A stretch of 62,151 bases of DNA, filler included, from Jimgerdemannia flammicorona (taxonomy: Eukaryota), in the NCBI GenBank assembly GCA_003990765.1. It is 2 parts of 2 records of this genome, joined end to end, with 100 filler letters (N's around TTAATTAATTAA, not from the genome) between each part and the next. Parts side by side here need not be neighbours in the genome. Positions count along the whole stretch, not along the records: positions 1 to 31,028 come from RBNJ01000412.1; 1 more part is not named here. One strand, 5' to 3'. The number at the start of each line of letters is the position of its first letter. Within the stretch, counting starts at the first letter, position 1. Shown one piece after another: positions 1 through 29,592 of the stretch. The notes beneath the pieces were generated by a model. That model ran no database searches. It was not told the origin of the DNA and saw only the letters and a list, made by a program, of their open reading frames with translations. Position numbers and translations under genes: made by a program.

Positions 1-172
1 CCTAACCCTAACCCTAACCCTAACCCTAACCCTAACCCTAACCCTAACCCTAACCCTAACCCTAACCCTAACCCTAACCCTAACCCTAACCTTAACCCTG
101 ACCCTAACCCTACCCTAACCCTAGCCCTAACCCTAACCCTAACCCTAACCCTAACCCTAACCCTAACCCTAA
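1..172 (+). repeat. Terminal telomere (CCCTAA)n, i.e. TTAGGG on the minus strand
   Basis: Uninterrupted CCCTAA array at the window start, with a few variant units at about 90-124. Confidence 0.98.
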
Positions 173-211
173 TTATGAAAGCTGCCGCTTTCATAAGCTA
201 AGCCTCTCATC

Positions 212-225
212 GGGTATAAATACCC
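212..225 (+). promoter_or_regulatory. TATA-like box inside the palindrome GGGTAT-AA-ATACCC in the element 5' UTR
   Basis: TATAAAT at 215-221; retained in copy 2 (about 5368-5381) and partly in copy 4 (about 19480). Confidence 0.35.
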
Positions 226-321
226 TTCTCCATTATTTTTTCGTTGCTCAAACAAAGGTCACGTGGCCCGCGTTTCACAATTTCACAAACACAAACAAAT
301 ACACCTCTGCCTATTTCGGCA

Positions 322-1820
322 ATGTCAGCCACCTCCTCCATCATCAGCGATGACGGCAATGCTACCCGCCTTTTTGCATGCTTCGGCGCCTCTCTCCGCT
401 GTGCTGAATGTCGCGGCGTCAGTCTTCTCTCTCTCGGCTTCAGCGAGGGTAGCCTTACGGCGATGTGCAGGTCGTGCGGGGATGCACGCCCGATTTCATC
501 ATATTTATCTTCTCTGCATGATGCGGAAGATGACGAAGAGATCGCGATCTCTTCCGATTCGGACCACGACGCCCAGCGCCCCCCTACTCTCCCACGCCCC
601 CACCCCTCAACTGGAACAAGCGTGGTCGCCCGAACACTAGTTTGGGTATGACCCCGATGGCCGGTCATGCGGGCCCCTCGGCCGACCCTGATCTGGCCAC
701 AGAGATGGCCACAATAAGGAAGCAGATCTCAGATCTGCTGACTCAAGTGGCCGAACTGGTCAAGATCAACGCCCACCTGATGGCGCAGATTGCTGCACGT
801 CATGCGCCCACTGCCCCCTCGTCATCTGATGCTCCTTCGGGAAGTACCCCCACCGCCCCTTCCACAACCACTCCCCCCAAGTCCCCAGCCCCCCCTCCTA
901 CTGGTCCTGCTGCGAACACGCGGTCGAAGGCCCAGAAGCGAGCGGACAAATGGGCCACTAAAGCTGCTACCTCGCAGTCTGGTGTACCGCCAAAGGAGGT
1001 AACTCCCATGGCCGTGCCTCCGGCTGCTAAAGCCGCGCTCTCTAAAAAGGGCAAGACCAAGGTTCCCGGACCAGTGCCCCAGGTTATGCCTGCGGGACCC
1101 AGTGCCGCCGGCCCGTCTTCGTCCTCTGCTTCGACCCCCGCCCCCCCCAAATCATACACCACCGCCGCCAAGAAGGTTTCTATCAAGGATAGGACCCAGA
1201 CCTACCCCAAGACGGAAAGGGCAGCTGCTGCCGCCGCCCTTTCGCGCATGACCCATAAGCTGACCTCTCATTTGTCGCCAACTGAGAAGGGTGCTAGGCT
1301 TCAGCGCATTTACGTCGACGGATTTGCCCATCTCAAGATCGGGCAGATCCGGAGGAACTTGTACAACATCCATATGATATTATCAAAAGTTCTCAATATT
1401 TCGTACATCTTGGCGTCGACCATCGAATTCCTGCTCCGCCCTGATTATGTCACGGCATTCCAAAAGAAGATGAAGGCGCTTGAGTTCTCGGTACTGTCGG
1501 CCTGGAACCCTGCGCTCCCACGCAACAAGAACGCCACAGAGGCTGTGAAGGCACGGGTACTCCAATTATTCCATGCTCGGGTCCAGCAGTTGGCAGGTGA
1601 AGCCACTGCAAAGAGGCCCGAGGTGCAGACCTTCTATCAAGCTTGGGCCGCAGAACTCGGCCTTGCTCTCCTCTCCCCCGCCTCCCCATTGGCCAGCCCT
1701 GCTTCGAAGGCAGGTGGTACTGTGGCTGTGACTAGTGAGATGGCGATGGATTTGGAAGCTGAAGCTTCCGCCTCAGGTGCTTCCCATGCTATTGGCGCTA
1801 ACGCGCCCGGCCCACAATGA
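322..1820 (+). pseudogene. ORF1 of the telomeric retroelement (about 499 aa reconstructed: C4 zinc ribbon, coiled-coil-like segment, Pro/Ala/Ser-rich linker, C-terminal globular domain)
   Basis: ORFs 244-651 and 642-1820 join if one C is restored in the C-run near 580; copies 2 and 4 are in frame there. Contains CAEC...CRSC and LATEMATIRKQISDLLTQVAELVKIN. Confidence 0.8.
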
Positions 1821-4800
1821 GAGTCGGGTTTTTCAATGCACACGGACTACCCCAGGACAAGTTCGATGTGCTCAGTCAGTTGATTGGTCCTGCCCTCGAC
1901 ATTCTTTTCATATGTGAAACATGGCACATCCCGCTGCGTCCCTCTCTGCTCATTCATATGTCTTCCCCTCCGGCATCGCACAGGATAATGGGTCATCAGA
2001 ATGGTGGTCTCGTGGTTCTTGTGTCCAACTATTTCGCCCCCCTCATTTCCAGGTCCTCCGCTGACCCCTTCCTTATCCAGCTCATGTTCCAGAGCTTGGC
2101 TTTGGTTGGGGTTTATACCCCCCCCTCTCTTCCCATTGGTAGCTTTCGTGATCTGGTGTCTGGACCCTTTCCGGGTAAGGCCCTTTTGATTGGTGACATC
2201 AATACCCGTTTCGGTGTTTGCCTTGGTGACGTCAACTCTGGTCCTCATGATCAGATGGATGTCATCGACACCTCCCTGATGACGTGGTCGCTGAACCACC
2301 TGACCCCGGTGGCTGGATCCATACGCGTTGACCACGCGTTCGCAACCGCGTCCCTCCACGTGTCCCTCACCTGCTCCACCCCTCCTGTCACTACTGATCA
2401 CCCCTCCCTCCTCACCATCTCCTTCCCCTTCTCCCCCTCGCCGGTTGCTGCCTTGGCTGGTGTCCGTCGTTACTCTGCGAGATATCTGACCGATCCGTTT
2501 GTTCAAGCCCACCTTCGGGAATCAGCAGATATTGTTTGTGATACCGTTGTCAGGTCCATCTACTCTGTCAGGGACCACATCGCCGGCTTTTGTTCTGTGG
2601 AAGATCGCCAGCAGTTTGTGGATTCCCTTGATGCTCTTTTGACCTCTGGTCTATAGTCAGTCTGTGAGGACATTCTTGGCTCATATGACGCAAGAGAGAT
2701 CAGGACGGTGCCGCTCCCTCAGCGGGACCTTCTTTGCAGTGCATCTTCGGTCTCTGATACCATCCGTGGTTTCAAGCGAGTGTATCGCTCCACCCCCTCC
2801 GCACCTCTCCAATCTCGCTCCCCCAATGTCCCAATGTTCAATGATGTGGTTGCTCACTTTCCCACCATCTTCGGCCAGCCTGACACCTCCCTCCGCCTCG
2901 ATGACTCTGAGGATGTCTTTCCCATCGGCGTGGGCACTCTTGGACTGCAGTCTTGGTTTGACCAACCTGAGGTTTGGAGGGCTGTCTGCAGCTACCCTCT
3001 CTCAAAGGCATGTGGTGCCGACTCCTTGCATGTCCGGATCCTTCGGGTGATGGCAGGTAAGTGAGACACCCCCTGTAGCCTTTCGAAGGCCCTCTCGTTC
3101 TTCTTCCAGATGTGTGTGGTTTGGGGGCTCACTCCCCGCTGCTGAAACTCTGCCATCATCACCCCGGTCCCCAAGAAGGAGGAATCGCATACGATCAATA
3201 GATTTCGCCCTATTGCTCTGACTGAAATGTTTCGTAGACTCTTCGAGTGGTGCTTGGAAGGATACATCAAAAGCCGAAGTGATCTGACAGAAATGTTGCA
3301 CTGCCAAGGTGGCTTCCGAACCTGCTTCTTGTCCCTTTCCCATGTCTTATTATCGCACAAGACATGGGTCAAAGGATGGGGCCACCGTGTCTTCCTAGAC
3401 CTCTGGCAGGCGTATGATCGAGTCCCCCTCCAGTGCATTCTTTCCCGCCTTGAGGCACAAGGTGCCGATGCGGCCCTCCTTAGCATTATCCGAAGCCTGT
3501 TCAATCACTGTTCTTATCAGGTGTTTGTTAATGGCCTTGTCACCCCTTTGATCCCCACTGAGCATGGCCTCTTCCAGGGCTCCCTCCTCTCCCCTTGGCT
3601 ATTCGATGTTTTCATCGACCCCCTTGCCGCCTCCTTTAATGAACAGTTCAAGGAGTACGACTTCCCCCTTGGGCTCTTCTTTGCTGATGATATCGCCCTT
3701 ACCCCCCGCACTGCCGCGGAAGAACAAAGGATTGTTGATTTTTGCGAAGATTGGCTACGGGTGAACGGTATGGAGCTCAACCCCAAGAAGTGTGGTCATG
3801 TTGGCCCGGCTGACTGTACTGTGCTGATTGGGGGAGAACCCTGCCCACGATCCACCTCCTACGTATACCTGGGTGTGCCATATACCAACAAAGGGTTTGA
3901 CTTTGTCAACCTTGCATTGCAGAATACGGCAAAGGCAGAACGAACTCTTGGGTTCTGCCATGCCTGTGGTCCCCTCTGGTCGCCAATGGTCAAGTAGGCC
4001 ATCGTACGAACATTCATCCGGTCTCAGCTGGAGTATGGCCTTCCCCTTCTACGTGCTTCCTGTCCGGCTACTACCATGGGGCTTCAGGTGTTGAAGCGTC
4101 CCGAGCAGGTCTTTGATGACGCTGTCGCTTGGGCGGTTGGATTTTCAGGCGGGCCTCTGCTTGGCAGTCCGATTCTTGGCCTCCCTTCCTTCCTTTGTCA
4201 AACGTCTGACCTCTGCTGCATATTCCAAGCCCATCTGGATTGGTGTAGCAAGTCTGGCAACAACCCCATCGGCCCCCTTAGCGAGCACTTTGTCATGCAT
4301 CCCCCGGGTTCAATCATTGACAAATTCCAGTGCTGGACCTCTTGGCTTGACTTCCTCAACTGGTATTGGGACCTTCGTCCCCAAGTCCACAAGACTCGCT
4401 CGCTCCGCTCCTTCCTCCAGTCCTTCCTCCGGGATCAGCTGCTTCAGGAATGGGCCTCCTCCTCCCAGGCTCTCGTTTGGTATATCACCCCCAAAGGCCG
4501 CTTGCGGTCGCAGGGCGCTGATCGCATCCTTTCCTTCCTCCCCCGGCTTGTGCGTTCTGCCCTTGCCTAGCGTTATGGCTATTTTGGCCAACCCTGCCCC
4601 TGCCCCTGTGGAGATAAGTTTCATCATGGCCATCTCCTCAGGTGCGGTCTTCTCGACGGTTCATATTCTGCTTTCCGAGGTTCCTCAGATCGAGATGAAC
4701 AGCTCGACTGATTTACCAATGACGAATGGCAGGAGGAACTTCGCGTCTACCTGCTTCATGCTCTTCACGAGACAGCCTACCACGCTATCGACACCATGTG

Positions 4801-4863
4801 TAATTCTGGTGGCCACCTCGTGGTGGGTTTTGCCTGACCGAGATTACGAAGATGCTTGGGTGA
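1817..4863 (+). pseudogene. ORF2: APE endonuclease + reverse transcriptase + C-terminal Cys/His motif (about 1015 aa; six in-frame stops, one late frameshift)
   Basis: APE motifs FFNAHGL, ICETW, GVYTPP, GDIN, RVDH, TDH. RT motifs FRPIAL, QGGFR, FLDLWQAYD, GLFQGSLLSPWLF, FFADD, NPKKC, YVYLGV. Stops at 2654, 3062, 3143, 3995, 4568, 4709. Confidence 0.93.
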
Positions 4864-5239
4864 TCGAGCGATCACACATTTTTTTTATTTCTTTCTTTCC
4901 CCTCATTCGACTTGATTGGTTCCCCCGTTGTTGAGAGTGCATTGAGTTATTCATCTCATGTCAGTCATTTGGCGTTCAGTTGTCGATACAGTTCCTGTAG
5001 TTGGTGCCAGGCGTTTGTGAATTATATCTTAGCATTTCTTTTCTTTGCTTTTCACATTTTATTATCTTTACAGCCATGACAAAATGGTTTTATCCAGCCC
5101 ATCCATAGGGTGGTCATCTCTCTGGCCTTTGTTTTGTACTTCCTAGCTAGTTGTTTGCTTCGCTGGCCTTGTTTTGCTTTTCTCATCTTAGGAGTCTTTG
5201 CCGTTTATTGCTCCGATGTATCTTGTCTTCTCTATAATG

Positions 5240-5245
5240 AATAAA
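5240..5245 (+). promoter_or_regulatory. AATAAA polyadenylation-type signal 13 nt upstream of the CCTAA tail
   Basis: AATAAA sits at the equivalent position in every element 3' end (also about 10395, 13233, 19344, 24414). Confidence 0.5.
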
Positions 5246-5263
5246 TCCTTACTTGAAGCCTAA

Positions 5264-8200
5264 TTTAAGACACTCACATCATTTCCCCATTTTGCTACAC
5301 TCGCTTTATGGCCTAAAGCTATTCCACATTAAGAAAGCAGTCACTTTGATTAGCGAAGCCTCCCATTGGGTATAAATACCCCCTTCCCTATTATTTTTTC
5401 ATTGCACAAATAAAGGTCAAGTGATCCGTATTTCACAATTTCACAAATACAAACAAATACACCTTTGCCTATTCCGGCAATATTGGCCACCTCCTCCGTC
5501 GTCAGCGATAATGGCAATGCCACCTGCCTCTTCGCGCACTTCGGCGCCTCTCTTTGCTACGCTGAATATCGTGACATCAGTCTCCTTTCTCTCGGCTTCG
5601 GTAAGGGTAGCCTTACGGCGATGTGCAGGTCATGTGGGATGCACAACCGATATTGGCGTATTTATCTTCTCTGCATGATACAGAGGATAATGAAGAGATC
5701 GCGATCTCTTCTGATTTGGACCACGATGCCCAGCACCCCCCCTTCTCTTCCACACTCCTGCCCCTCAATCGGAACAAGCACGGTCGCCTGAACACTAGTT
5801 TGGGCATGACCCCGACTGCTGGTCGTGCAGGCCCCTCAGCCGACACCGATCTGGTCATGGAGATGGCAACGATGAAAAACCAGATCTCGGATCTGCTGAC
5901 TCAAGTGGCCGAACTGGCAAAGATAAATGCCCAGCTGATGGCGCAGCTTGCTGCACAGTCTGCGCCTACTGCTCCCTCATCATCTGGTGCTCCTTCGGGT
6001 AGTACCCCCACCGCCCCTTCCACATCTGCCCCCCCCAAGTCCTCGGCCCCCCCTCCTCCTGGTTCTGCCGCTAACATACGGTCGAAGGCCCAGAAACGAG
6101 CGGACAAGCAGGCCGCTAAAGCTGCCGCGTCATAGTCTGGTGCACCGCCAAAGGAGGCAACTCCCACAGCTATGCCTCCGGCTGCCAAAGCTGTGCTCCC
6201 TAAAAAGGGCAAGGCCAAGGCTCCCGGACCAGTGCCCTAGGTTATACCTGTGGGACCCAGCACCGCCGGTCCGTCTTCGTCCTCCGCTTCAGCCCCTGCC
6301 CCCCCTAAATCGTATGCCGCTGCCGCCAAGAAGGTCTCTATTAAGGATAGGACCCAGGCCTACCTCAAGACAGAAAGGGCAGCTGCCACTGCTGCCCTTT
6401 CGCATATGACCTGCAAGCCAACCTCTCACCTGTCACCAACTGAGAAAGGGGCTAGGCTGCAGTGTGTTTACATCAATGGATTTGCCTATCTTAAGATTGG
6501 GCAGATCCAGAAGAACTTGTATGATGTCCATGTGATGTTGTCAAAGGTTCTCAATATGTCGTATGTCTCGGCGTCGACCATCAAATTCCTTCTCTACCCT
6601 GATTATGTCAGGGCATTCCAAAAGATGATGAAGATGCTCAGGTTCTCAGTGCTGTCAGCCTGGGACCCTGCGCTCCCACGCAACAAGAATGCCATGGAGG
6701 CTGTGAAGACATAGGTACTCCAATCCTTTCACGCTCGGGTCCAGCAGTTGGCAGGCGAAGCCACTGCGAAGAGGTCTGAGATGCAGACCTTCTAACGAGC
6801 TTGGGACGCGGAACTCGGCCTTACTCTCCCCTCCCCCACCTCCCCGTCGGCCGGCCCTGCTTCAAAGGCAGGTGGTACTGTGGCCATGACTGGTGATATG
6901 GTGATGGATTTGGAAGCTGAAACTTCTACTTCAGGTGCTTCCCACGCTGTTGGCGCTAACATGCCCAGCCCACAATGAGAGTCGGGTTCCTCAATACATA
7001 CAGACTACCCTAGGACAAGTTTGATATGCTCAGTCGGTTGATTGGTCCTGCCCTCGACGTTCTTTTCATATGTGAAACGTTGCACATTCTGCTGTGTCCC
7101 TCTCCGCTCATTCACATGTCCTCTCCTCCGGTATCGCACAGAATCGTGGGTCACCAGAATGGTGGTCTCGTGGTCCTCATGTCAAACTGCTTTGCCCCTC
7201 TCATTTCTGGGTCCTCCGCCGACCCCTTCCATATCTGGCTCATATTCCAGGGTCTGGCTTTGATTGGGGTTTATACCCCCTCCTCTCTTCCTATTGGTGG
7301 CTTCCGTGATCTTGTGTCTGGTCCCTTTCCAGGTAAGGCCCTCCTGATCGGTGACATCAATACCCGCTTCGGTGCCTGCCTTGGTGACATCAACTCTGGC
7401 CCCCGCAACAGGATGGATGTTATCGATACCTCCCTGATGATGTGGTCATTGAACCACCTAACCCCAGTGGCTGGATCCCCGCATGTTGATCACCATTCGC
7501 CACCGCGTCCCTCCACGCGTCCCTCACTTGCTCCACCCTTCCTGTCACTACCAACCACCCCTCTCTCCTTACTGTCTCCTTCCCCTTCTCCCCCTCGCTG
7601 GTTGCTGCCTTGACTGGCATCCGCCGTTACTCTGCGAGATACATAACCGATCCAGTTGTTCAAGCTCATCTCTGGGAATCAGCAGATATCGTTTGCGATA
7701 CTGTTCTCAGGTCCATCTACTCTGTCCGAGATCACATCGCTGGCTTTCGCTCTGTGGAAGATCGCCAGTAGTTCATGGATTCTCTGGATGCCCTTTTGAC
7801 CTTTGGTCTATAGTCAGTTTGTAAGGACATTCTTGGCTTGTATGACGCAAGGGAGATTAGGGAAGCGCCGCTCCCCTGGCGGGACCTTCTTCACAGTGTA
7901 TCTTCGGTCTCTGATACCATTCGTGGTTTCAAGCGAGCATACTGCTCTATCCTCCTTACTTCTCTCCAATCTCGCTCCCCTAATGTTCCGGTGTTCGACG
8001 ACGTGGTTGCTCACTTTACCGCTATCTTTGGTCAACCGAACGCCTCCCTCCGCCTCGATGACTTTGAGGATGTCTTCTCCCTTAGTGTGGGTGCTCTTGG
8101 ACTGCAGTCTTGGTTTGACCAGCCTGCAGTTTGGAGGGCTATCTGCAGCTACCCCCTCTCCAAGGCCTGTGGCACCGACTCCTTGCATGTCCAGATCCTT

Positions 8201-10418
8201 CGGGTGATGGCAGGCGAGAAGGACACTCCCTGTAGTCTGTCGAAAGCCTTGTCCTTTTTCTTCCAGATGTGCATGGTTTGGGGGCTCACTCCCTACCGCT
8301 GGAACTCTGCCATCATTACCCCAGTTCCTAAGAAGGAGGAATCGTGTACAATTGATGGATTTCACCCTATCGCTCTGACAGAAATGTTTCATCGACTCTT
8401 TGAGCGGTGTTTGGAAGGTTACGTCAAGAGCCGAAGTGGCCTGACAGAAATGTCATGCTGCCAAGGTGGCTTCCGAACCTGCTTCTTGTCTCTCTCTCAT
8501 GTCTTTCTTTCGCATGAGACATGGGCTAAGGGATGGGGTCGCCATGTCTTCCTTGACCTTCGGCAGGCATACGACCGAGTCTCCCTCAAGCTCATCCTTT
8601 CCCGGCTTGAGGCGAGAGGTGCTGATGCAGCCCTCCTTAGCATTATCCGAAGCCTGTTCAATCACTGTTCTTATCAAGTGGTTGTCAATGGCCTTGTCAC
8701 CCCTTCGGTCCCCACTGAGCATGGCCTCTTCCAGGGCTCTCTCCTCTCCCCTTGGCTCTTCGATATCTTTATTGATCCCCTCGCCTCCTCCTTTGATGAA
8801 CAATTCAAAGAGTACAACTTCCCCCTCAGGCTCTTCTTTGCCAATGATATCGCCCTCACCCCCTGCACTGCCACAGAGGGGTAACAGATGATTGACTTCT
8901 GTGAGGACTGGCTTCTGGAGAACAGTATGGAACTCAATCCCAAGAAGTGCGGTTATATTGGCCCTGCTGACTATACTGTACTGATTGGGGGAGAGCCCTG
9001 CCCACGACCCCCCTCTTACATGTACCTGGGCATGCCATACACTAACAAAGGATTTGACTTTGTCAGTCTTGCGTACAGAATGCGGCAAACACGGAACGAA
9101 CTCTTGGGTTCTGCCGTGCCTGTAGTCCTCTCTGGTCACCAATGGTCAAGCTGGCCATCCTACGTACATTCATCAGGCCTCAGCTGGAGTATGGCCTTCC
9201 CCTCCTATGAGCTTCCTGTCTGGTTACTACCACGGGGCTTCAGGTATTGAAGCATCCCAAGCAGGTCTTTGATGATGCTGTCGCTTGGGCGGTTGGATTT
9301 TCCGGCCGACCCTTGCTTAGCAGCTCAATTCTCAGCCTCCCTTCTTTCCTTCGTCGTACGTCCGACCTCTGCTGTATGTTCCAAGCCCACCTGGATTGGT
9401 GTAGCAAGTCCGGCAACAACCCCATTAGCCCCCTTAGCGATTGCTTTGTCACGTGTCCCCTGGGTTCTATTATTGACAAGTTCCAGCATTGGACCTCTTG
9501 GCTTAACTTCCTCGACTGGTACTGGGACCTCCGTCCCCAGGTCCGCAAGACTCGCTCGCTCCGCTCCTTCCTCTAGTCCTTCCTCTAAGATCAGCTATTG
9601 CAGAATTGGGCTTCCTCTTCCCAGGCTCTCATTTGGTATATCACCCCCAAAGGCCGCTTACCATCGCGGGGCGCTGACCACGTCCTCTCCTTCCCCCCCC
9701 AGCTTGTGCATTCTGCCCTTGCCTGGCGCTATAGCTACTTTGGCCAACCCTGCCCCTGCCCCTGTGGAGATAAGTTTCATCGTGGCCATCTCCTCAGGTG
9801 CGGTCTTCTTGACAGTTCATATTCTGCATTCCAAGGTTCTTCTGATCGAGATGAACAACTCGATTGGTTTACCAATGACAAATGGCAGGAAGAACTTCGT
9901 GCCTACCCTCTTCACGCTCTTCACAAGACAGCCTACCACGCCATTGACACCATATGTAATTCTGGTGGCCATCTCATGGTTGGGTTTTGCCTGACTGAGA
10001 TTACAAAGATGCTTGGGTGATCGAGCGATCGCACATTTTCTTTATTTCTTTCTTTCCTCTTGTTCCCCCGGTTGGTTCCCTCTTTGTTGAGAGCGTATTG
10101 AGTTATTCATCTCATATTAGCTATTTGGTGTTTAGTTGTCGATACAGTCCACGTAGTTGGCACCGGGTGAACATGTATTATATCTTAGCCTTTCTTTTCT
10201 TTGCTTTCTGTATTTATTATCTCTACGGCCATGACAAAATGGTTTTATCCAGCCCGTCCATAGGGTGGTCACCTCTCTGGCCTTTGTTTTGTACTTCTTA
10301 GCTAGTTGTTTACTTCGCTGGCCTTGCTTTGCTTCTCTCATCTTAGGAGTCTTTGTCTTTTGTTACTCTAATGTATCTTGTCTTCTCTACAATGAATAAA
10401 TCCTTACTTGAAGCCTAA
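5264..10418 (+). mobile_element. Telomeric retrotransposon copy 2 (full length, degenerate; ORF1 about 5483-6978, ORF2 6975-10020)
   Basis: Colinear with copy 1 over its whole length, with more stops and frameshifts; ends GAAG-CCTAA. Confidence 0.93.
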
Positions 10419-13256: not shown

Positions 13257-13308
13257 CCCTAACCCTAACCCATAAATAAATTCTTTCTTGAAGCTTAACT
13301 CTAACCCT
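13252..13308 (+). repeat. Interstitial telomere tracts flanking a ~22-bp remnant of the element 3' end
   Basis: TCTAA-CCCTAA-CCCTAA-CCC / ATAAATAAATTCTTTCTTGAAG / CTTAA-CTCTAA-CCCT. Confidence 0.85.
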
Positions 13309-18231: not shown

Positions 18232-18297
18232 TTTTATTTTATCATTATGATAATGTATCTTTTCTTCTTTACAATTAAATAAATTTAACTTCAAGAC

Positions 18298-18299
<2 letters not shown>
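18232..18299 (+). mobile_element. Diverged 3'-end relic related to the telomeric retrotransposon
   Basis: ATGTATCTTTTCTTCTTTACAATTAAATAAATTTAACTTCAAGACTA aligns with ATGTATCTTGTCTTCTCTATAATGAATAAATCCTTACTTGAAGCCTA. Confidence 0.6.
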
Positions 18300-18376
<77 letters not shown>

Positions 18377-19155
18377 GTTTTTTTTTTTTTTTTTTTTTTT
18401 TTTATAGTCACTTGGACTCCGTTCCTTTATTAATACCCATCTATCCCATATAAATACAGTAATCCCACCCCCTATCCAATCCCCCTAGGGGGACCCCTCC
18501 CCCCTACCCCTTTCCGACAAAAGACCACCTTGTCTAACACCATCGCCACCCTTCCACCACTCTGCTCACAGATCCTCACCACCAAACTGCGACGCCGACC
18601 CCCCTGAGGGCCCCAACCCACCCACCAACCAGTCAGCAGATCCCCCAACAGCTCCTCCCACCATAACACCTTCTCTCACAGCCCAAACCACTGACCCTTC
18701 TCAAATACAAAAAGCCAATGTCTAGCTAATCCCACTCATACTGCTAGTACCCACCCTACAGTGAGCCAACTATCACCCACCCCACCTACAAGCTGAGTTC
18801 GCAAGTCCCCCCAGTAGTCCCCCTCACCACCCAGCCTTCTTCCTATACCTAATCTATCCCCTATCTCAGTCCAAAACTCCCCCAAAACTTCACACTCTCC
18901 CAGCCAATGTTCTGGTGTCTGTACATGACCCTCAGCTCGCCTATCATCATAACACTCTTCACAGTTGAATCGTCCACCCTCTACCAAATACCCTGTGTGG
19001 AAATTCAGCATAATATTCCTCCTCAACATTCTCCACCATACCACCTAGAACTTGGGAGGCAGCCACCGCCATACCTCTGCACTCCAAGTCCAGATACCTG
19101 CCCAGTCCCACTCCTCGCCAATCCCAGCCACCTGCCAGCCACCTGGCCAAACTGC
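18300..19155 (-). mobile_element. 5'-truncated L1/Tx1-like LINE 3' end with ~104-nt poly(A) (relatively young)
   Basis: Poly(T) 18300-18403; ORF 18736-19044 carries the CCHC motif CEEC...EHWLGEC; 3' end GTCCAAGTGAC matches 44860-44870; CpGs retained. Confidence 0.88.
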
Positions 19156-19373
19156 TTTTGCATTACTGTCCTTATGACCATGATAAAATGGTTTTATCCA
19201 GCTCATCCATAGGGTGGTCACCTCTCTGGCCTTCATTTTATACTTCTTAGCTAGTTGTTTACTGCATTGGTCTTGTTATACTTTTCTCAACTTAGGAGTC
19301 TTTGCTATTTATTACTCTGATATATCTTATCTTCTCTATAATGAATAAATTCTTACTTGAAGTCTAACCATAA
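19153..19373 (+). mobile_element. 3' UTR fragment of the telomeric retrotransposon with degenerate telomeric tail
   Basis: Matches about 5047-5263; ends GAAG-TCTAA-CCATAA. Confidence 0.88.
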
Positions 19374-22300
19374 CCTAAGCCACTTATGTGATTTCTCTAT
19401 TTGGCTAGACTTGGCTTTACAGCCTAAACCTATTCCAAATTAAGAAAGCAGTCACTTTGATTAGCTAAGCCTCTCATCAGGTATAAACACTCCCCTTTTA
19501 AATTATTTTTTTATTGTACAACAAAGGTCATGTGACCTGTATTTCACAATTTCACAAATAAATACAATTATACCTTTGCCTATTCTGACAATATCAGCCA
19601 CCTCCTCCATCATCGGTAATGATGGCAATGCTACTTATCTCTTTGCGCACTTTAGCATCTCTCTCTACTACACTGAATGTCATGGTATCAGTCTTCTTTC
19701 TCTCAGCTTCAGTGAGGGTAGTCTTATGGTGATGTGCAGGTCATATGGAGATACATAACTGATATCAGCATATTTATTTTCTCTGTATAATATGGAAGAT
19801 AATGAGGATAATGTGATCTCTTCTGATTTGAACCATGATGCCAAGCACACTCCCTTCTCTCCTATGTTCCTGCTCCACAATTAGAATAAGCACAGTTACC
19901 TGAATACTAGTTTGGGCATAACCCTGACTACTAGTCATACAAACCCCTCAGCCAACCCTGATCTGATCATGGAGATAGCTATAATGAGAAAGCAGATCTT
20001 AGATCTGCTGACTCAAGTAGCCAAACTGGTCAAGATCAACACCTAGCTGATAGCGTAGCTTGCTGCATATTTAGCACCCACCACCCTCTCATCATCTGGT
20101 ACTCTTTCAGGAAGTACCCCTGCCACTCCTTACACACCCACCCCCCCCAAGTCTCCAGCCCCCCCTCTTACTGGTTCTGCTGTGAACATATGGTTGAAGG
20201 CCCAGAAGTAAGTGGACAAGTGGGCTACTAAAGCTATTACATTGTGGTCTAGTACATCACCAAAGGAGGTAACTCTCATGGTAGTACCTCTAGCCACCAA
20301 AGCTGCACCCTCTAAAAAGGGCAAGGCCAAGACCCCCAGGCCAGTATCTCAGGTTATGTCTCTGAGACCCAGTGCTGCTGGTCTATCTTCATTCCCTGCT
20401 TTTACTCCTGCCCCCACTAAATCATATGCTACTACTGCTAAGAAGGTTTCTATTAAATATAGGATTCAGGCCTACCTTGAGATGGAAAGGGCTGCTGCTA
20501 CTGCTACTCTTTTGTACATGATCTGCATACTGACCTCTCATTTGTCACCAACTGAGAGAGGTGCTCAGCTGTAGTACATTTATATTAATAGATTCACCCA
20601 TCTGAAAATCAGACAGATTTGGAAGAACTTATATAATGTCTATATGATATTGTCAACAGTTCTCAATATATCATATGTCTTGGCATCGACTATAAAATTT
20701 CTTCTCTGCTCTGATTATATCATGGCATTCCAAAAGAAGATAAAGGTACTTGGGTTTTCAGTACTATTGGCCTGGGACCCTGTACTCCTCTGTAATAAGA
20801 ATACTATAGAGACTATGAAAGTATAGGTACTCCAAACTTTCTATGCTCAGGTCCAGCAGCTAGCTGTCAAAGCCACTGTGAGGAGGTCTGAGATATAGAC
20901 CTTTTACAAGATGTGAGCTGTGGAACTTAGCCTCACCCTCCCCTCTCTTGCCCCTCTGTCAGCTGGACCTACTTTGAAGGCAGGTGGTACCATGGCCATG
21001 ACTGGAGAGATGGTGATGGATTTGGAGCTGAGGCTTCCTCTTCAGGTACTTCCCATGCTATTGGCACTAATGCACCTAGCCCATAATGAGAGTTGGGTTT
21101 TTTTCATTTATAATATATGGCACATTCTGCTGTATCCCTCTCTGCTCATTCATATATCTTCTTCTACAATATCATACAGGATTATAGGTCATCAGAATAG
21201 TGCTGACATAGTTCTCATGTCAAACTATTTCACCTCACTCATTTCCAGGTCCTCTGATGACCCCTTCTATATCTGGCTTATGTTTTAGGGCTTGGCTTTG
21301 GTTGGGGTTTATGCCCACTCCTCTCTACCCATTGGTGGGTTCTGTGATCTTATATCTAGCCCCTTCCCAGATAATACTCTTTTGATTGGAGACATCAATA
21401 CCCATTTTGGTATCTGCCTTGGTGACATCAACTCTAGTCCTAGAGATCAGATAGATGTTGTCAACACCTTCTTAATGACATGGTCATTGAATCACCTGAC
21501 CTTGGTGGCTAGATCCATATATATTGATCATGCATTCACCACCATATCCCTCCATGCATCTCTTACCTGCACTACTCCTCTTGACACCACCAACCACCCC
21601 TCTCTCCTCACTGTCTCCTTCTCCTTCTCCCCCTCACTGGTTGCTGCCTTGGTTGATATCTATCATTACTCTGTGAAATATCTGATCGATCTGGTCATTC
21701 AAGTATATCTTTGAGAATCAGTGAATATCATTTGTGATACCATTTTCAGGTCCATTTACTCCGTTTGAGATCATGTTGCCAGCTTTTGCTCTGTGAAAGA
21801 TTGCCAGTAATTTGTGGATTCTCTTGACACCCTTTTGACCTCTGGTCTACAGTCAGTCTGTAAGGACATTCTTGGCTCATATAACACAAAAGAAATTAGG
21901 ACAGTGCTGCTCCCCCAGTAGGATCTTCTTCCCAGTATATCTTTGGTCTCTGATGCCATTCACAGTTTCAAGCAAGCATACCACTCCACCCCCCCTGCCT
22001 CCCTCTAATCTCACTCTCCCTGTTTGATAATATGGTTGCTCATTTTACCACTATCTTCAGTCAGCTAAAACCTCCCTCCACCTTGATGACTTTGAGAATA
22101 TCTTTCCCTTCAGTGTGGGTACTCTTGGACTGCAGGCTTAGTTTGACCAGCCTATGGTTTGGAGGGCTATCTGCAGCTACCCTCTCTCAAAGACCTGTAA
22201 GGCCAACTCCTTGTATGTCCGGATCCTTTGGGTGATGGCAGATGAGAAGGATGCTCCCTATAGCCTCTCCAAAGTCTTGTTCTTCTTCTTCTAGATATAT

Positions 22301-24437
22301 GTGGTTTGGAGGCTCACTCTCCACTGCTAGAACTCTACCAACATTATCCCAGTTTCTAAGAAGGAGGAATTGCAAATGATCGATAGTTTTCACCCTATTA
22401 CTCTCACCAAAATATTTCGTAAACTCTTCGAGCAGTATTTGGAAGGATACATCCAGAGCCAAAGTGGTCTGATAGAAAAGTTGTACTACTAAGGTGGCTT
22501 CCGAACTCGCTTCTCATCCCTCTCTCATGTCTTGCTCTCACATGAGATGTAGACCAAGAGATGGATCTGCTGTATCTTTCTTGACCTCTGGCAGGCATAT
22601 GATAGAGTCTCTCTCAAGCTCATTCTTTCTTAACTTGAGGTATAAGGTACTGATGCAGTCCTCCTTAGCATTATCCACAGTCTGTTCAACCATTGTTCCT
22701 ATCAGATGGTTGTTAATGGCCTTGTCACCTCTTTAGTCTCCACTGAGCATGGCCTCTTCTAAGGCTCCCTCCTCTCTTCCTGGCTCTTTGATGTCTTTAT
22801 CAACTCCCTCGCAACCTCCTTTGATGAATAGTTTAAAGAGTACAACTTTCCCCTAGGGCTTTTCTTTACTGATGATATTGCCCTCACCCCTTACACTGCC
22901 ATGGAAGGGCAGAGGATAATTGACTTCTGTGAGGACTAGTACTTGGCGAATGGTATGGAACTCAATCTAAAGAAGTATAGTTATATTGGCCCTGCTGAGT
23001 ATACTGTATGGATTGGGGGTAAGCCCTGCCTACAACCCCCCTTCTATGTATATCTAGACATACTGTATATTAACAAAGGGTTTGACTTTGTCATCCTTAC
23101 ATTACAGAATATAGTGAGGGTGAAATACACTCTTGGGTTCTGCTATACCTGTGGTCCCCTCTAGTCACCAATAGTCAAGCTGGCCATCATATGGACTTTC
23201 ATCAGACCTCAGCTAGAATACAGCCTCTCCCTTCTATGAGCCTCCTGCCTAGCTATTACTACAGGGCTTTAGGTGTTGAAGCATTCTGAGCAGGTCTTTG
23301 ATGATGCTGTCATTAGGGTGGTCAGATTCTCTGGCCATCCCTTGCTTGGCAGCTCAATTCTTGGCCTTTCTTCCTTCTTTTGTCATATGTTGGACCTCTG
23401 CTGCATGTTCTAAGCCCATCTGGATTGGTGTAGTAAGTCTGGTCAGCTCCCTTAGCAAGCACTTTGTCATGTATCCTCTGGGTTCTATAATTGACAAGTT
23501 CTGGCAATGGACCTCATGGCTTGACTTCCTTGCCTAGTACTGGGACCTCTATCCCTAGGTCCACAAGACTTGCATACTCTACTTCTTCCTTCAGTCATTC
23601 CTCCCAGATCAGCTGCTGCAGAAATAGGCTTTCTCATCCCAGGTGCTCATTCGGTACATCACCCCCAAAGGCCACTTGCAGTCCTGGGGCACCAATCATG
23701 TTCTCTCCTTCTACCGCCAGCTTGTGCGCTCTGCACTAGCCTGGTGCTATGGCTACTTTGGCTAACTCCGCCCCTGCCCCTATGGAGATAATTTTCATCA
23801 TGGCTATCTCCTCAGATGTGGTCTTCTCGATGGTTCCTATTCTGCATTCTGAGGTGATTTTGATCATGCTGAACAGCTTGATTGATTTACCATTGATGAA
23901 TGGCAGAAAGAACTTCATGCCTACCCTCTTTACATTCTTCACAAGACAGTCTACCACACTATCAATACTATGTATAATTCTGGTGGCCACCTCATGATCG
24001 GGTTCTGCCTGACTGAGATTATGAAGATGCTTAAGTAATTGAGCAATCGCATATTTTCTTTATTTTCTTCTTTTCACTCATTCGTCTCAGTTGGTTCACT
24101 TATTGTTGAGAGTGCATTAAGTTATTCATTTCATATTAGTTGCTTGGTATTTGAGTGTTGATATTATTCCCATAGTTGGTGTCAGGCATTTGTTTATTTT
24201 ATCTTAGTTTCTCTCTTCTTTACTTTTCGCATTTATTATCTTTACAGCTGTGATAAAATGGTTTTATCTAGCCCATCCCTAGAGTGGTCACCTCTCTGGC
24301 CTTTGTTTTGTACTTCCTTACTAGTTGTTTACTTTGCTGGTCTTGTTTTGCTTTTCTTATCTTAGGAGTCTTTGCTGTTTATTGCTCTGATGTATCTTAT
24401 CTTCTCTATAATGAATAAATTCTTACTTAAAGTCTAA
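19374..24437 (+). mobile_element. Telomeric retrotransposon copy 4 (full length, heavily mutated; short deletion at the ORF2 start)
   Basis: Same 5' end as copy 2; ATGA overlap at 21086-21089; 3' UTR followed by CCCTAA repeats. Confidence 0.92.
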
Positions 24438-24479
24438 CCCTAACCCTAACTCATGAATAAATTCTTTCTTGAAGCCTAA
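24433..24479 (+). repeat. Interstitial telomere tract plus element 3'-end remnant (duplicate of 13252-13308)
   Basis: TCTAACCCTAACCCTAACTC-ATGAATAAATTCTTTCTTGAAG-CCTAA. Confidence 0.85.
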
Positions 24480-27400
24480 TGATATTCCACCCCCCTACCA
24501 GTCTCACTCAAATAAACACTAGCAGTCTTTTTTAAATTTATCAATCAAATATTAACTGGAATACTCTCACATATCAAAACCTTAACTTTCTGCTGAATGT
24601 TCTTAGCTCAATTATTCCACAACTCCTTCTCAGTCAATAAAGAGGAATTAAGATGCCAATATCCAGACCCATCCCCACTTCCCTCAAATTGCTCATATTA
24701 TAATAAGCCCCAATAGTCAGATGATAGATACTACTCTACTATTATAGACTTCCAGATATCTAGCCCCCAATAGTTAGCTATCAGCACTCAGTCAATTCTA
24801 GCCTCCTGGTCATATACCCAGTAAGTATAGACCCTCTTATCTCCCTACATTGCTCAGCCAGCATCTATGAAGAAGCTAAATTACTCTATCTCCTCCCATC
24901 TCTCTAGACTACTACTCTTGCTCCCTATATTTCTCACCTCATCTGTCCTATCCAACTATATCAAGCAAACTATATTGAAGTCCCCTTTAAGCATCTTCAC
25001 TTCTATCACTACAAGTACTCCACTATCTAAACAATTATCAATCTACTCTATATACTCACTTCTGATTACAGAATAGTAATAAGATCTGACCACAATGAGT
25101 TCTCATTCTGGTTGGTACTACTCACCTCAAACCAAATGATCCTCCCAGGTCCTGCTATCATATAATTCCACTTACCCTCTCTATATCAGAATTTCAACCT
25201 TGCTATTCTAGACTGGATCTCTACTCCATTCTCTTATCCACTCTTATTACTCAGAGTCCTCCTATATTATATATCCTACAGTAGAAAGAGATCAGTCTCT
25301 AATTCTTTTAACTAAGTAAAAATGTTATATTATCTCCCAGGACTCATCAAATTATTCACATTCAATTAGAAAATATTGGTTATACTATTCATAAGAAATA
25401 ATATTGATATAGATATATCCTCCTTATAACTCTATATTCACTCTATCTATAGCTAGATCTAATCTATATTTAGCAGTAGTCTCAGCCTCCTCAACCTATT
25501 TGGTTTTCAGCCCAACCAATAGCTCATTGAGTACAGCATCATTCATTAACTTCATCTTCTTCCAGTAATCTATGCAATCTCCTTTCCAAATTTCTAATCT
25601 TTACTATTCTTCTCACCAGAAGTCTGTATGCTCTCTAGCTGCTACTGCCATTTCTACTTCTCTTGTAACATCTATCTTATAGCCCTTCTCATCTAGATAT
25701 ACTATTAGTACCTTCTTTATCAGAGCCTCTACAACTCCCTCTCTTCTCATGATTCCTACCTAGTGCTCCTCACTGACCACTGTAGGTCTATATCACCCAA
25801 CTCCTCAGTAACTAAGTTATTCATTGTCTGTCACATCCACTGTAGATTTCCAATCTCCTTGCCCCCAGGGATTGCAAGTCAGCCAGCTCTAAGCATTACA
25901 GTATTTACTCTAGTACTTGCAGACTCATCCCACTCTTTCTCTGCGATATCCACCAACTCCTTCTCTCTAACCCCAACTATTTATCTCACACTTGCAATCT
26001 CAGATACTCTACATCTAACATGGCAAGTTTCCATCATCTCTACATCCTCACTAGTAGTTAGCTGGCTACTCCAATCTTTCTTTTCTATATCTCCAACCTC
26101 CTCCTATACCTTAATCAAAGAGAGCTTGATTCCTCTTCTCATGGCCCCTCCTCATTTGCTTCAGTACCTACCAAATCTCCACCTCTGACATTATCTCCCC
26201 TCAGCCTCTCCTCTTAAGCTTGGCTTCTCCCTCTCCTCTCCTTCAGCCTCACTCATAGCTCTTTCTGCCCCTTGTGCCCCTGAGCCCTCTTCTACATTCT
26301 CTTGTCCTCCTGAATGTACTTTCTATCCACTATCTCTAAGTGCATTGATTCTATATAATTCTGACATACCTTGGCTCACTGCTTCATCACTCTACTGAGC
26401 TCCTTCAGTACCTCCACCAGATCCTCCTCCTCCTCCATGCTCCCTTTCATCCTTATTAACTTACAGATAATTGCCCCCACATCTTCACTGAGATCAGTCT
26501 CTTGGCTTCCCTATAGCCTCTCTCTCAGCCAACCTGGATCTGACCTCTATATCTCTAATTCTAAATGAGGTCCACTCTTAGACCTAGAAGCTGATATCTA
26601 CCACCTCACCATACTCTGCCATAAACTCCTCTACCCTCCTCCTCATCTTGACTATCATTACTGTGGGCACTCTCTTTACTAGTAACTGATCCACTCTGGG
26701 GTCTCACCTCAAAAAATAAGCTATCAGAACCTCAATCTCTCCTATAGTCAGTCCTGTCTTGATTGTCTTCTCAAAGGGAGCAGTCTCCTCAAAGCCCACC
26801 TCTACTCTCTCCAGTCTCTTCAGGAACTTTACCAAGGCTGCTTCAGCCATCTGCTTTGAGAATAGCCTCAGAACTATTCTCACTGTCACCACTAAACTCT
26901 GGAAGCATAATATGACTGTGAACTCTGAGATAGACTTCTTGAGTAATAGGACCACCACCAGCTCTGTTATACTATTAGTCAAATTACTGGTTTTCCTCAG
27001 CCTCTGTAACCCAGTCCTACAATCAGTAGTCATATCTGGATTTTTTCCAGATCTCTAGTTACTCTTTGATCAGCAGTCCTACTAGTTTATCTAGTCACTA
27101 CTCCACCAGCTCTTCCACCTGCCAACAGAGATACTAATCCTCCAGCCCTCACTTACTTTAACTTTTTCTTACTGCTCTCCTATCCCCCATCAGCTCCAAT
27201 AGGCTATCCAATCATCTTCTCTTGTCTGCAAAACTCAGCCCCCATACCTGCACCAGACTGGCCACTATTGCTCAGCCCACCATGACCTCCAGACTCTTCC
27301 AAAGCTCCTATCTCCAGTTTCTACTCCCTTCTGATATATTGCCAGTTAAAGGCCCAAGATATACCCAACCTAGTATGTATATTGGCTCACTTATTTATTG

Positions 27401-27483
27401 TCATATCCTTAGTAGCTTTCTTCAATAAATAATTCAAAAGTATGTTTCAAAGTTTGTATGATATAAATGTTAGTTGAGAAAGG
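24480..27483 (-). mobile_element. L1/Tx1-like LINE 5' portion (duplicate of 13309-16302)
   Basis: Colinear and highly similar to 13309-16302. Confidence 0.8.
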
Positions 27484-29372
27484 TAAATTATAAATGACAT
27501 TATTATCTCCTAACTTGATCAATACAGAGTATTCAAAAGGCTCATAAGTAGAAAACTATTCTCTATATGGCATTATTTGTTATATAGCTCCAGTATCTAT
27601 TAGCCAGACATCATTGTCATTAGTTGTATTGGTACATTCATCATGTCTACTTTTTGTTGAGTAAAAAGTGTCTCACTGACTAAGATTCATAGATGACAGT
27701 TTGGTGAATTTGGCTATAGATCTTGCACTGCTTGTGGAACTACTTGTTATAGATATAGTTCTCATATTGATGAAATTAGCAGTGGAGCTAGTATCTTATA
27801 TCAAAAATAGATTATTACTTTTATTAGTTTTAGCAGTATTTGTATTACTATACTTCTCTCAATAGTTCTTTCTACTGCTCTCATAGTGTCAGTATTGACT
27901 TTTATCACATTATTACTTATTCTCACCACTCTCCTTATCATTTTTCCAGCTATAGCATTGGTGCTTTCTGTGTCCATACTTGCCATGGTACTCACAGTAA
28001 CTATCATACTTAGTTGATTGACTAGACTGATTGTTATATTAATTTTGAGTTTAGGTATATTAGCCTTATTGAATGCACTTTTGATCTTATTTGTCACCAC
28101 ATCTATAAGACTCTTTGAAAGCATTTTCATTATTGTCAATATCATTTTCTTTGTGCATTTCCTTGTTTATAATGCTCATTTAGTATTTCCAATAAATTGA
28201 ATTAAACGTCTATTTTGATTTGAAAGTCAATTTGAATCCTATTTTTCGAAATATAATAATCAATAAAAATATATCCAAATTTAACAATCTTTAGCCTGTT
28301 AGATTTTCCTATATAAGGGAAATCTAACAAGCTAAAGATTATTAAATTTGGATATGTTTCATTGAGTTATTATATTTTGAAAAATAAGGTTCAAATTAGA
28401 CCCTCAATTCAATTTAAATTCAATTTGATTTGAATTTCATTCAAATTGAAAAATCCCCAATTTGATTTAATTTGAATTATCCTCAATTTGATTCAATTCA
28501 AATTGATTTGATTCAATTGGAAGCCCTAGACTCATTATTATATAGGTGTAATCTAAGAAACTATCCTTCTTACATATAGCTATAATGACAATATTATATA
28601 TATTCAGAAGTCTTCCTATAAGTACTATAATCTTATCTTCATTACTAATATAATCTGTAGATATACTGAGGGAATTCACTTGATTCATCAGATAATCAAT
28701 ATGATTGACATATTCATAGATACTCTTCTTTGACTTTATTGAAAAATTGAATAACTAAGATTTCAAGTAGAATTGATTCAACATAGATACTTATATATAA
28801 TGCTTGTATATGGCTTCCCATACATTGTGAGCTGTTGTAATATACATTACAAGCTTCATTTGCAAGTTCAATAATATGAATGCAATCTCGCATAATACTT
28901 GATAATTGTTTGCTAGATTGTAATCTTGAATTAGTACTTATAGCTTTATATACTCTACTAAGCATATTCATAGAGAAGATATATTATATGAAATACCCAA
29001 ATGGCATAGTCTTTTCCATCAAAGATCAGGACAGACCTCTAGGCTGTATTAATACTAACAACCTGAACTATATTTCCTATACCTATTGAGGTTGTATCTG
29101 TGAGAGAAATACTTATGGTTAGTATGTCTATTTCTATACTTATATTACTAGGCTAGTCTTCTGATATTTCTAGTATATATGTAGTATATTTAAAGAGGTG
29201 TTTTGCTATAGCCACTTAGCACTAGTGGAGCTCATAACCTTTGTTATAAAAAGAGAGATAATTTCATTGAAGTTACATAGATTGTATATTTCTCTATATT
29301 ACTGATAAATGATATAAATCTGATAGAATGACATAAGGTCACATGCTGGTATATTGAGTTGCTATCTCAACA
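27484..29372 (-). mobile_element. Ty1/copia 5' fragment (duplicate; LTR 29242-29372; nested MITE 28181-28528)
   Basis: Colinear with 16303-18231. Confidence 0.83.
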
Positions 29373-29438
29373 TTTTATTTTATCATTATGATAATATATC
29401 TTTTCTTCTTTACAATTAAATAAATTTAACTTCAAGAC

Positions 29439-29440
<2 letters not shown>

Positions 29441-29475
<35 letters not shown>

Positions 29476-29558
29476 TTACTTGGACTTTGCCATTTATTAC
29501 CAATCTGTTGATATAGTTACAGTATCTCCTCCCACTACCCAATCCCATAGGGGAGCCC
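29441..29558 (-). mobile_element. 118-bp 5'-truncated L1/Tx1-like insertion with poly(A) and 15-bp TSD
   Basis: TTAACTTCAAGACTA at 29426-29440 and 29559-29573; body matches the reverse complement of about 44786-44870. Confidence 0.88.
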
Positions 29559-29570
29559 TTAACTTCAAGA

Positions 29571-29592
29571 CTAACCCTAACCCTAACCCTAA
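29571..29592 (+). repeat. Innermost interstitial telomere tract (fossil chromosome end)
   Basis: CTAA-CCCTAA-CCCTAA-CCCTAA, in the same orientation as the terminal telomere. Confidence 0.88.

Follow-up and report, generated by a model that had tools for sequence, protein, structure and literature searches.

A polar array between two telomere tracts

The window considered here is a stretch of 62,151 nt from the Jimgerdemannia flammicorona assembly GCA_003990765.1, in which two contigs are separated by a block of N (31029-31128), and the array discussed below, formed by copies of a single retrotransposon without long terminal repeats (non-LTR), lies in contig 1 (RBNJ01000412.1). We consider it likely that this contig is a chromosome end which has been invaded repeatedly by a non-LTR retrotransposon specific for telomere repeats. 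A profile built from the copies and run with nhmmer over both contigs has recovered exactly five pieces of one element of ~5.15 kb, 5/5 of them on the + strand, i.e., the C-rich one, and with their 5' ends distal. In contig 2, 31 kb rich in transposable elements (TEs), the profile has found none, and a weak reverse transcriptase (RT) match near 42.8 kb belongs to a different long interspersed nuclear element (LINE). The features of contig 1 are given below; model positions refer to the element profile, ORF denotes open reading frame, and o/e the observed/expected ratio.

1-172, + strand: terminal telomere tract (CCCTAA)n of 172 nt, with a few variant units at 90-125; caps the 5'-truncated copy 1
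173-5263, + strand: copy 1 (nhmmer 155-5263; model 43-5154), without about the first 40-60 nt of its 5' end, which the terminal tract adjoins immediately
1248-1817, + strand: C-terminal part of ORF1 in copy 1, with a domain that is conserved (tblastn), modelled with AlphaFold (AF2) and RRM-like (RNA recognition motif)
1817-2656, + strand: apurinic/apyrimidinic endonuclease (APE) of the exo-endo-phosphatase fold in ORF2 of copy 1, an open frame of 279 codons
3146-3997, + strand: RT in ORF2 of copy 1 (Pfam RVT_1, E 2.1e-21)
5240-5245, + strand: AATAAA at the 3' end of copy 1, whose terminus reads ...GAAGCCTAA at the junction
5264-5268, + strand: spacer TTTAA between copies 1 and 2, aligning with the CCTAA that precedes copy 4
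5269-10418, + strand: copy 2 (model 1-5154), full length, ORF2 broken across three frames
10419-13256, + strand: copy 3 (model 2317-5154), 5'-truncated, belonging to a segmental duplication
13257-13308, + strand: (CCCTAA)2CCC, a 27-nt 3'-terminal remnant (13272-13298) and degenerate telomere units CTCTAACCCT
13309-19156, no strand: X1, debris of other TEs, CpG-depleted, duplicating X2 up to about 18332-18510
19157-19367, + strand: 3' fragment of 211 nt (model 4943-5154), followed by degenerate units CCATAA CCTAA to 19378
19379-24437, + strand: copy 4 (model 1-5154), full length and most decayed (CpG o/e 0.10), with internal deletions of 73, 10 and 11 nt
24438-24479, + strand: (CCCTAA)2, CTC, then a 27-nt 3' remnant (24453-24479)
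24480-29379, no strand: X2, debris of other TEs, the X1 paralogue, 92-95.5% identical
29380-29441 and 29557-29574, + strand: oldest 3' remnant, from the element or a sister subfamily, adjoining the fossil telomere
29575-29592, + strand: fossil telomere (CCCTAA)3, from the repeat scan

Regarding the telomere repeats themselves, (CCCTAA)3 has been found 19 times in the whole stretch, always on the + strand, with 18 occurrences within 6-172 and one at 29575-29592 (expectation by chance 0, from 100 shuffles), and no (TTAGGG)2 or longer has been found anywhere in it. Runs of at least two CCCTAA units lie at 6-89, 125-172, 13257-13268, 24438-24449 and 29575-29592. Of the 29.6 kb that extend to the fossil telomere, about 18.4 kb belong to the element; ~11 kb between the terminal and the fossil telomere are unrelated, CpG-depleted TE debris.

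The 3' ends of all five pieces read AATAAAT(C/T)CTTACTT(G/A)AAG(C/T)CTAA, i.e., AATAAA-N13-CCTAA, and poly(A) occurs at none of them. What follows each end varies. Copy 1 is followed by TTTAA, which is probably one decayed telomere unit to judge from its alignment, and then by the complete 5' end of copy 2. Behind copy 2 no telomere unit is present, and copy 3 begins at an element-internal CCC (junction CCTAA/CCCT), which reads ...AGGG-3' on the G strand. Copy 3 is followed by (CCCTAA)2CCC, the 211-nt fragment by CCATAACCTAA (CCATAA CCTAA) and the complete 5' end of copy 4, and copy 4 by (CCCTAA)2. The 27-nt 3' remnants sit between telomere units and have been likened to abortive insertions, and the 211-nt fragment ahead of copy 4 could be an independent truncated insertion or a 5' 'tag' transcribed from the upstream neighbour.

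In copy 1, ORF1 (about 323-1820) is interrupted by one frameshift and shares an ATGA overlap with ORF2, and ORF2 (1817-4837) contains 6 premature stops without a frameshift and aligns in a single frame (tblastn, 1817-4699) to a relative of 1199 amino acids (aa). The TGA at 4835, common to 4/4 copies, is likely the natural stop of ORF2; all four large copies are defective. At the N-terminus of ORF2 the Pfam family Exo_endo_phos has scored below its cut-off (16.4 vs 24.5 bits), and the catalytic residues N7, E34, Y100, D127, N129, D172, H173, D194 and H195 are at least 90% conserved among 36 family sequences. The AF2 model of the domain (predicted local distance difference test, pLDDT, 88.9) has matched human L1 ORF2p/EN (endonuclease), APE1, TRAS1 EN (1wdu, E 7e-10) and R1Bm EN (2ei9) in Foldseek, with E values spanning 1e-9 to 1e-11 that do not discriminate among L1, APE1, TRAS1 and R1Bm. 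The C-terminus of ORF2 carries a Cys/His motif. RNase H (PF00075) is absent from eight relatives scanned with Pfam and from the precomputed domains of the top family matches, and Pfam scans of seven ORFs from the window and of the eight relatives have given neither an RNase H nor a family for a restriction-enzyme-like endonuclease (REL).

ORF1 combines a Cys4 motif, a coiled-coil-like stretch and the RRM-like domain. This C-terminal domain of about 120 aa has been found by tblastn upstream of ORF2 in 19/79 related loci; its AF2 core (pLDDT 82-97) shows a beta-alpha-beta-beta-alpha core plus two helices, and the top rows in VIA-align have been mostly RRMs, with a weak best Z of 6.6. Foldseek has given no match for it at E≤0.001, the ORF1 pieces have matched 0 Pfam families at E≤0.1, and no CCHC motif has been found in them. 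The absence of LTRs and the 5'-truncated copies (model starts 43, 2317 and 4943; the 27-nt remnants) are as in LINEs.

Taken together, the original prediction has held in most of its observational claims: an APE- and RT-bearing non-LTR retrotransposon (by RVT_1, catalytic residues, model and Foldseek matches), a strictly polar array on the C-rich strand with 5' ends distal (five of five pieces and all small remnants), a telomeric tail in place of poly(A) at every 3' end, which relatives share, and no copy in the second contig. Its statement that the array builds the chromosome end applies to the element's own share and not to the rest, which has come from a 7.9-kb duplication and other TEs.

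Two properties of the element's DNA may be added. A TATA-like box, GGTATAAA(T/C)AC, occurs at 213-223, 5369-5379 and 19480-19490, ~100 nt inside the element's 5' end and ~100 nt ahead of the ORF1 ATG. If it were in use, transcripts would lack the first ~130 nt, and full-length copies would consequently need another start, e.g., a promoter in the 3' end of the upstream neighbour, which is where the HeT-A promoter is located. In addition, pyrimidines prevail in the sense strand (C 0.31, T 0.27, G 0.23 and A 0.19 in copy 1), so that the complementary strand, which runs on into the telomeric G-strand, is rich in purines; G-quadruplex motifs are nonetheless not notably enriched on the G strand of the copies, with 0-2 per copy.

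Relatives with the same tail

A search with an RT fragment has returned 106 proteins, the best of which are 43-45% identical and about 1000 aa long. Named family members belong to Calcarisporiella thermophila and Entomortierella parvispora (E 2.4e-79 and 1.3e-51 to P0001), and APE/RT clusters have been matched in the ESM Atlas. These named members are fungi of the Mucoromycota type, which suggests a host of that type. A metagenome scan has added 79 loci, the first 45 of which (27-44% identity) are treated as the family and the last 34 (22-29%) as more distant LINEs. With the 3'-end signature defined as A[AT]TAAA, 8-17 nt and then at least two telomere units, 21/45 family loci carry it in sense (24 sites) and 0/45 in antisense, the 34 distant loci do not carry it in either orientation, and shuffling has produced it in a mean of 0.065 loci (maximum 1, 200 shuffles). 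In 8 family loci the sequence stops within 850 nt after the RT match, too early to include a 3' end, which leaves 37 evaluable loci and a fraction of 21/37. Similarly, (CCCTAA)2 with at most one mismatch occurs in sense in 20/45 family loci and in antisense in 0/45, and no run of A12 or longer exists in the 45.

The tails of these relatives comprise 1.5-4.5 units where the contig runs on, and the tail unit appears to track the telomere motif of the host, as suggested by the (CCTAA)3 tail of locus L033 and the (CCCTAAA)2 on the 5' side of L022. Telomere units are also present 5' of L006, L014 and L041, and in L005, L006 and L029 tiny 3' remnants follow the tail, like in the array here. In L002 (4483-4720) the telomeric tail is followed by an array of ~40-nt repeats, each with a CCCTAAC(C/T)CT core plus about 20 nt. 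Telomere-like 5' VNTRs (variable numbers of tandem repeats) are carried by MoTeR and FoTeR, of which the L002 array is reminiscent.

In an RT tree of 92 rows (FastTree; outgroup names automatic only), the element and all 22 tailed rows fall into one clade of 52 rows with an SH-like (Shimodaira-Hasegawa) support of 99. None of the 40 rows outside is tailed; among them are an L1-like protein of a plant and proteins of spiders that bear automatically assigned R1/R2-type names. As the relatives show the same tail, the telomere association is a property of the lineage, and on the tree and the tails the element belongs to a deep clade of telomere-tailed APE-LINEs with many environmental relatives. 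A literature search, with Repbase Reports and subscription journals outside its coverage, has brought up no fungal LINE of APE type with a telomeric tail, and the lineage with an AATAAA-plus-telomeric-tail 3' end is probably undescribed and widespread.

Origin of the array

Based on these 3' ends, we propose that AAUAAA would direct 3'-end formation into the telomere repeats next to the source copy, so that the RNA of the element would carry one to three telomere units at its end. The tail would base-pair with the TTAGGG 3'-OH of the G-rich strand. This 3'-OH would arise mainly where the APE of the element nicks telomere repeats in duplex DNA and would occasionally be a natural or eroded chromosome terminus, and RT would then copy the RNA outward. 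Outward copying from such a pairing would yield copies on the C strand with distal 5' ends, without poly(A) and with 0-3 telomere units towards the proximal neighbour. Repeated rounds, together with a segmental duplication in the subtelomere, the arrival of other TEs and decay through CpG methylation, would have led to the present 29.6-kb structure, the end of which is still capped by telomerase-type repeats. Since the APE is conserved, the primer would usually be a nick in duplex repeats, and this conservation across the lineage speaks for TRAS-like insertion driven by the endonuclease no less than for end healing of the HeT-A type. The junction of copies 2 and 3, the 27-nt remnants and the direct capping of copy 1 would be compatible as well with priming at a terminus that had eroded, or with RT jumping from one tailed RNA template to another.

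The differences between the copies are mostly transitions and are concentrated at CpG (C>T 0.38 before G vs 0.09-0.18 elsewhere), and by this spectrum the decay of the copies is methyl-CpG decay and not repeat-induced point mutation (RIP) of the CpA or TCG type. RIP as in Neurospora (CpA) or Microbotryum (TCG) has been considered and rejected, as the change is a general one from CpG to TpG/CpA, with TCG the least affected trinucleotide. The CpG o/e of copies 1-4 is 0.70, 0.59, 0.15 and 0.10, as compared to 0.03-0.05 in X1, X2 and contig 2, and a C or G has been kept by one copy alone at 75 sites in copy 1, 64 in copy 2, 6 in copy 3 and 6 in copy 4. Both the gradient and the solely retained sites therefore indicate that the distal copies are the youngest. 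Site patterns group the copies as ((c1,c2),(c3,c4)), with 246 sites for 12/34 vs 22 and 23 for the other splits.

In the self-comparison, 10420-17052 matches 21623-28237 at 92.1% and 17055-18332 matches 28195-29473 at 95.5%, giving an overall duplicate of 7.9 kb (10420-18332 / 21623-29473). As judged from this alignment, copy 3, the (CCCTAA)2 and the 27-nt remnant behind it and some 5 kb of adjoining DNA duplicate, at the DNA level, the 3' part of copy 4 with the DNA next to it.

Among the other explanations, the one that fares best is the interpretation given in the original prediction, in which HeT-A-like end healing is the main mode, so that the terminus of the G strand, as an overhang or after erosion, primes without endonuclease and the element provides back-up elongation beside telomerase. 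It would account for the joining of copy 2 to an eroded copy 3 without a full telomere unit, at an ...AGGG-3' microhomology, for the only one or two units that separate full-length 5' ends from the tail of the next copy, for the alternation of abortive 27-nt remnants with telomere units, for the capping of a 5'-truncated copy 1 directly by canonical repeats and for the decay gradient from distal (young) to proximal (old); polarity and tail are, moreover, those described for the terminal Penelope-like elements (PLEs) of Z. tritici (PMC4522978). Nevertheless we regard it as improbable: the catalytic residues of the APE have been retained throughout the lineage, which speaks for a requirement of cleavage, none of the four copies is intact, and the 172-nt canonical tract at the end implies that repeat addition still works. 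SART1, the closest functional analogue, inserts into repeats rather than ends and, according to PMC7265360, needs only 2-3 units, and short tracts between copies consequently do not require end addition. The telomere-extending role beside telomerase that had been proposed is a hypothesis, and a benefit to the host is putative; the copies are defective and canonical repeats cap the end. A wider version of it is likewise rather doubtful: here the clade would be ancient and exclusively telomeric, in early-diverging fungi and other eukaryotes with TTAGGG, TTAGG or TTTAGGG repeats, and the RNA tail of telomere repeats (AAUAAA 8-17 nt upstream) would act as a telomerase-like pairing device, priming on nicks and eroded termini. 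The elements would then constitute a facultative second pathway of telomere extension and a free-living intermediate between ordinary LINEs and the telomere elements of Drosophila.

Still less probable is an array made mainly by subtelomeric rearrangement at the DNA level, i.e., by unequal exchange or break-induced replication of a few old insertions, in place of repeated site-specific retrotransposition. The 7.9-kb duplicate does carry copy 3, its tail and a 27-nt remnant, and the premature stop common to copies 1 and 2 as well as the pairing of copies in the site patterns fit such an origin. Against it, the junctions are all different (TTTAA, none, (CCCTAA)2CCC and CCATAACCTAA), the pieces have distinct 5' ends (model 43, 1, 2317, 4943 and 1), and the tail recurs in the same orientation in unrelated organisms, for which duplication at a single locus offers no explanation. 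Finally, that an ordinary dispersed LINE with a chance telomere-like 3' microsatellite has piled up in a gene-poor subtelomere under relaxed selection is very unlikely: simple repeats are a common 3' end among LINEs, the view of this genome is limited to one locus and 16/37 evaluable relatives lack the signature, but the orientation is uniform in 5/5 pieces here and 21/21 tailed relatives, the tail unit shifts with the apparent telomere type (CCTAA in L033), telomere units also stand on the 5' side of L006, L014, L041 and L022, and TE-rich contig 2 holds no copy.

Several observations weigh against repeated invasion by a telomere-repeat-specific element, which we still prefer. Copy 3, by the alignment above, is part of a segmental duplication and therefore not an independent insertion. 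Codon 280 of ORF2 is TAG in copies 1 and 2 and CAG in copies 3 and 4; given this common premature stop, at least one of the two distal copies has been copied in trans from a defective template or has been duplicated as DNA. Weaker methylation near the end, instead of youth, could partly explain the higher CpG of the distal copies. The specificity of the APE for telomere repeats is putative, and the position of the TATA-like box, as predicted from its motif, does not fit a simple internal promoter. The view is that of one locus of this genome, the other DNA being the 31 kb of contig 2, which has no copies. Among the relatives, the 16 evaluable loci without the signature include 7 from a divergent, long-branched subclade of 12 tree rows (L034-L045, L053), which derives from a few related samples and lacks the signature; among the others, L010 has a degenerate tail and L018 a near-match. 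At the 3' boundary of this subclade, where the homology of L044 to L035 ends near 4564, ATTAAA is found near L044:4554 without telomere units, and L034-L045 may have switched target. In addition, short-read metagenome contigs that run past the tail are biased to short repeat tracts.

Regarding the DNA between and beyond the copies, X1 and X2 have been considered as decayed copies of the element, and this has been rejected because the ORF2 profile finds nothing there in six frames. Both share pieces with repeats of contig 2 in the self-comparison, and 34 ORFs of X1, X2 and contig 2 have given one copia gag fragment and two sub-threshold matches. The gag fragment lies in X1 at 17329-17649 (- strand), and X1 also contains a T run of ~100 nt at about 18300. 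The oldest 3' remnant is split by an insert with a T-run tail, from 29442 to about 29556, flanked by a 15-nt direct repeat TTAACTTCAAGACTA; its appearance is that of a retroposon with a poly(A) tail, on the - strand, that would have inserted into the tail of the oldest copy. T runs follow the old 3' remnant in both paralogues, at 18299-18404 (about 100 nt) and 29442-29475 (34 nt), with homologous DNA behind both (18405-18510 vs 29476-29556), and the length of the insert differs, about 750 nt in X1 vs about 80 nt in X2. The segment 18510-19156, about 650 nt, is very C-rich and G-poor and has neither an X2 counterpart nor a family match. Rfam has given one sub-threshold miRNA match and no other RNA or ribozyme in contig 1; this match to a plant miRNA family at 17131-17215 (39.7 bits vs a gathering score of 119) is most likely due to chance. 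Proximal of the fossil telomere, 29600-31028 combines a GC content of about 0.24-0.31 with a CpG o/e of 1.01, compared to 0.03-0.7 in the rest of the stretch, and may be unmethylated non-repeat DNA.

Comparison with known telomeric elements

Retrotransposons specialised on telomeres are the main natural model for a selfish RT element that takes over or assists end maintenance, and the known cases concern few hosts and belong to unrelated clades, with R1 elements in insects, Jockey elements in flies, CRE elements in ascomycetes and Cryptococcus, PLEs and one Tx1 element of a lizard. If borne out by complete genomes, the present lineage would make it possible to test tail pairing against endonuclease specificity as the determinant of telomere targeting, would serve as a chromosome-end marker for fungal and protist assemblies, and would offer a telomerase-positive system for asking when such elements turn beneficial.

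The array shares with HeT-A, TART and TAHRE of Drosophila the polar head-to-tail arrangement with distal 5' ends, and the 3' fragment (19157-19378) that precedes the full-length copy 4 resembles the 'tags' of HeT-A. In contrast, Drosophila lacks telomerase repeats and its elements belong to the Jockey clade and are poly(A)-tailed, whereas in the present array canonical repeats stand at the end and between the copies. Tad1/I-type fungal LINEs have an RNase H domain after RT, which has not been found in the relatives scanned here. In MoTeR, FoTeR and Cnl1, short repeat tracts lie between the copies. These three elements resemble the present one in fungal hosts with TTAGGG-type telomeres and in polar arrays within repeats (PMC12857005, PMC8381367); they differ in belonging to the CRE clade with a REL C-terminal to RT, as described in PMC12857005, as opposed to an N-terminal APE and no REL found here.

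In its 3' end the element resembles the MoTeRs and the terminal PLEs (Athena, Coprina and the Z. tritici family). The latter have 1-3 telomere units there, the 3' end pointing away from the telomere, head-to-tail arrays and truncated copies. For the subtelomeric PLE-like family of Z. tritici, 1-3 TTAGGG units at the 3' end and the same polarity are described (PMC4522978), and pairing with the G-strand as primer is the mechanism proposed for terminal PLEs, as for the element here. However, these possess a PLE-type RT without endonuclease, whereas the present element is a LINE with a complete APE and two ORFs.

As telomere-targeting retroelements, PMC10088271 lists SART/TRAS, GilM/GilT, Zepp, MoTeR1, Tx1-1_ACar, Athena and the Drosophila HTT elements. 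The premise of the original prediction, that known telomeric elements are poly(A)-tailed, endonuclease-less or of REL type, is overstated, as it omits the APE-bearing TRAS/SART and the TTAGGG-specific Tx1 element of the green anole, Tx1-1_ACar (Repbase Reports 2013, cited after PMC10088271). According to PMC4640811, APE LINEs with a specific target fall in the Tx1 and R1 clades. With Tx1-1_ACar, compared here by its description only, the element has in common an APE-type clade, a (TTAGGG)n target and a telomerase-positive organism, although the former is a vertebrate element of the L1-like group. The RT of a family member has matched R2 (E 9e-20) better than L1 ORF2p (E 1.6e-13) in the PDB, and the L1-like plant row is distant in the tree, which weakly suggests a lineage outside L1/Tx1.

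The element works like TRAS/SART of Bombyx mori (R1 clade), which have an ORF2 with APE and RT, insert into telomere repeats in one orientation and coexist with canonical repeats. The sense strand of TRAS lies on the C-rich strand, like that of the element here. TRAS ORF1 has CCHC knuckles, whereas ORF1 here is without a CCHC match and its conserved domain is RRM-like. The hosts differ too, TTAGG insects there and TTAGGG organisms, probably fungal, here, and the only rows labelled R1-like in the FastTree tree, three proteins of spiders named automatically as R1/R2-type, lie outside the family clade (support 99). For TRAS1 and SART1, nick-primed insertion into repeats has been demonstrated experimentally, with the APE endonuclease as the determinant of the target and poly(A) needed for accurate priming (PMC7265360). 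Whereas TRAS/SART end in poly(A) according to the same source, a telomeric tail after AATAAA takes its place here, and the lineage combines a TRAS-like endonuclease with a PLE-like tail of telomeric repeats. Since TRAS/SART are APE-type and the anole Tx1 element has been cited, an APE-type telomeric LINE is not unprecedented, and the element is ordinary in kind, a selfish telomere-specific LINE.

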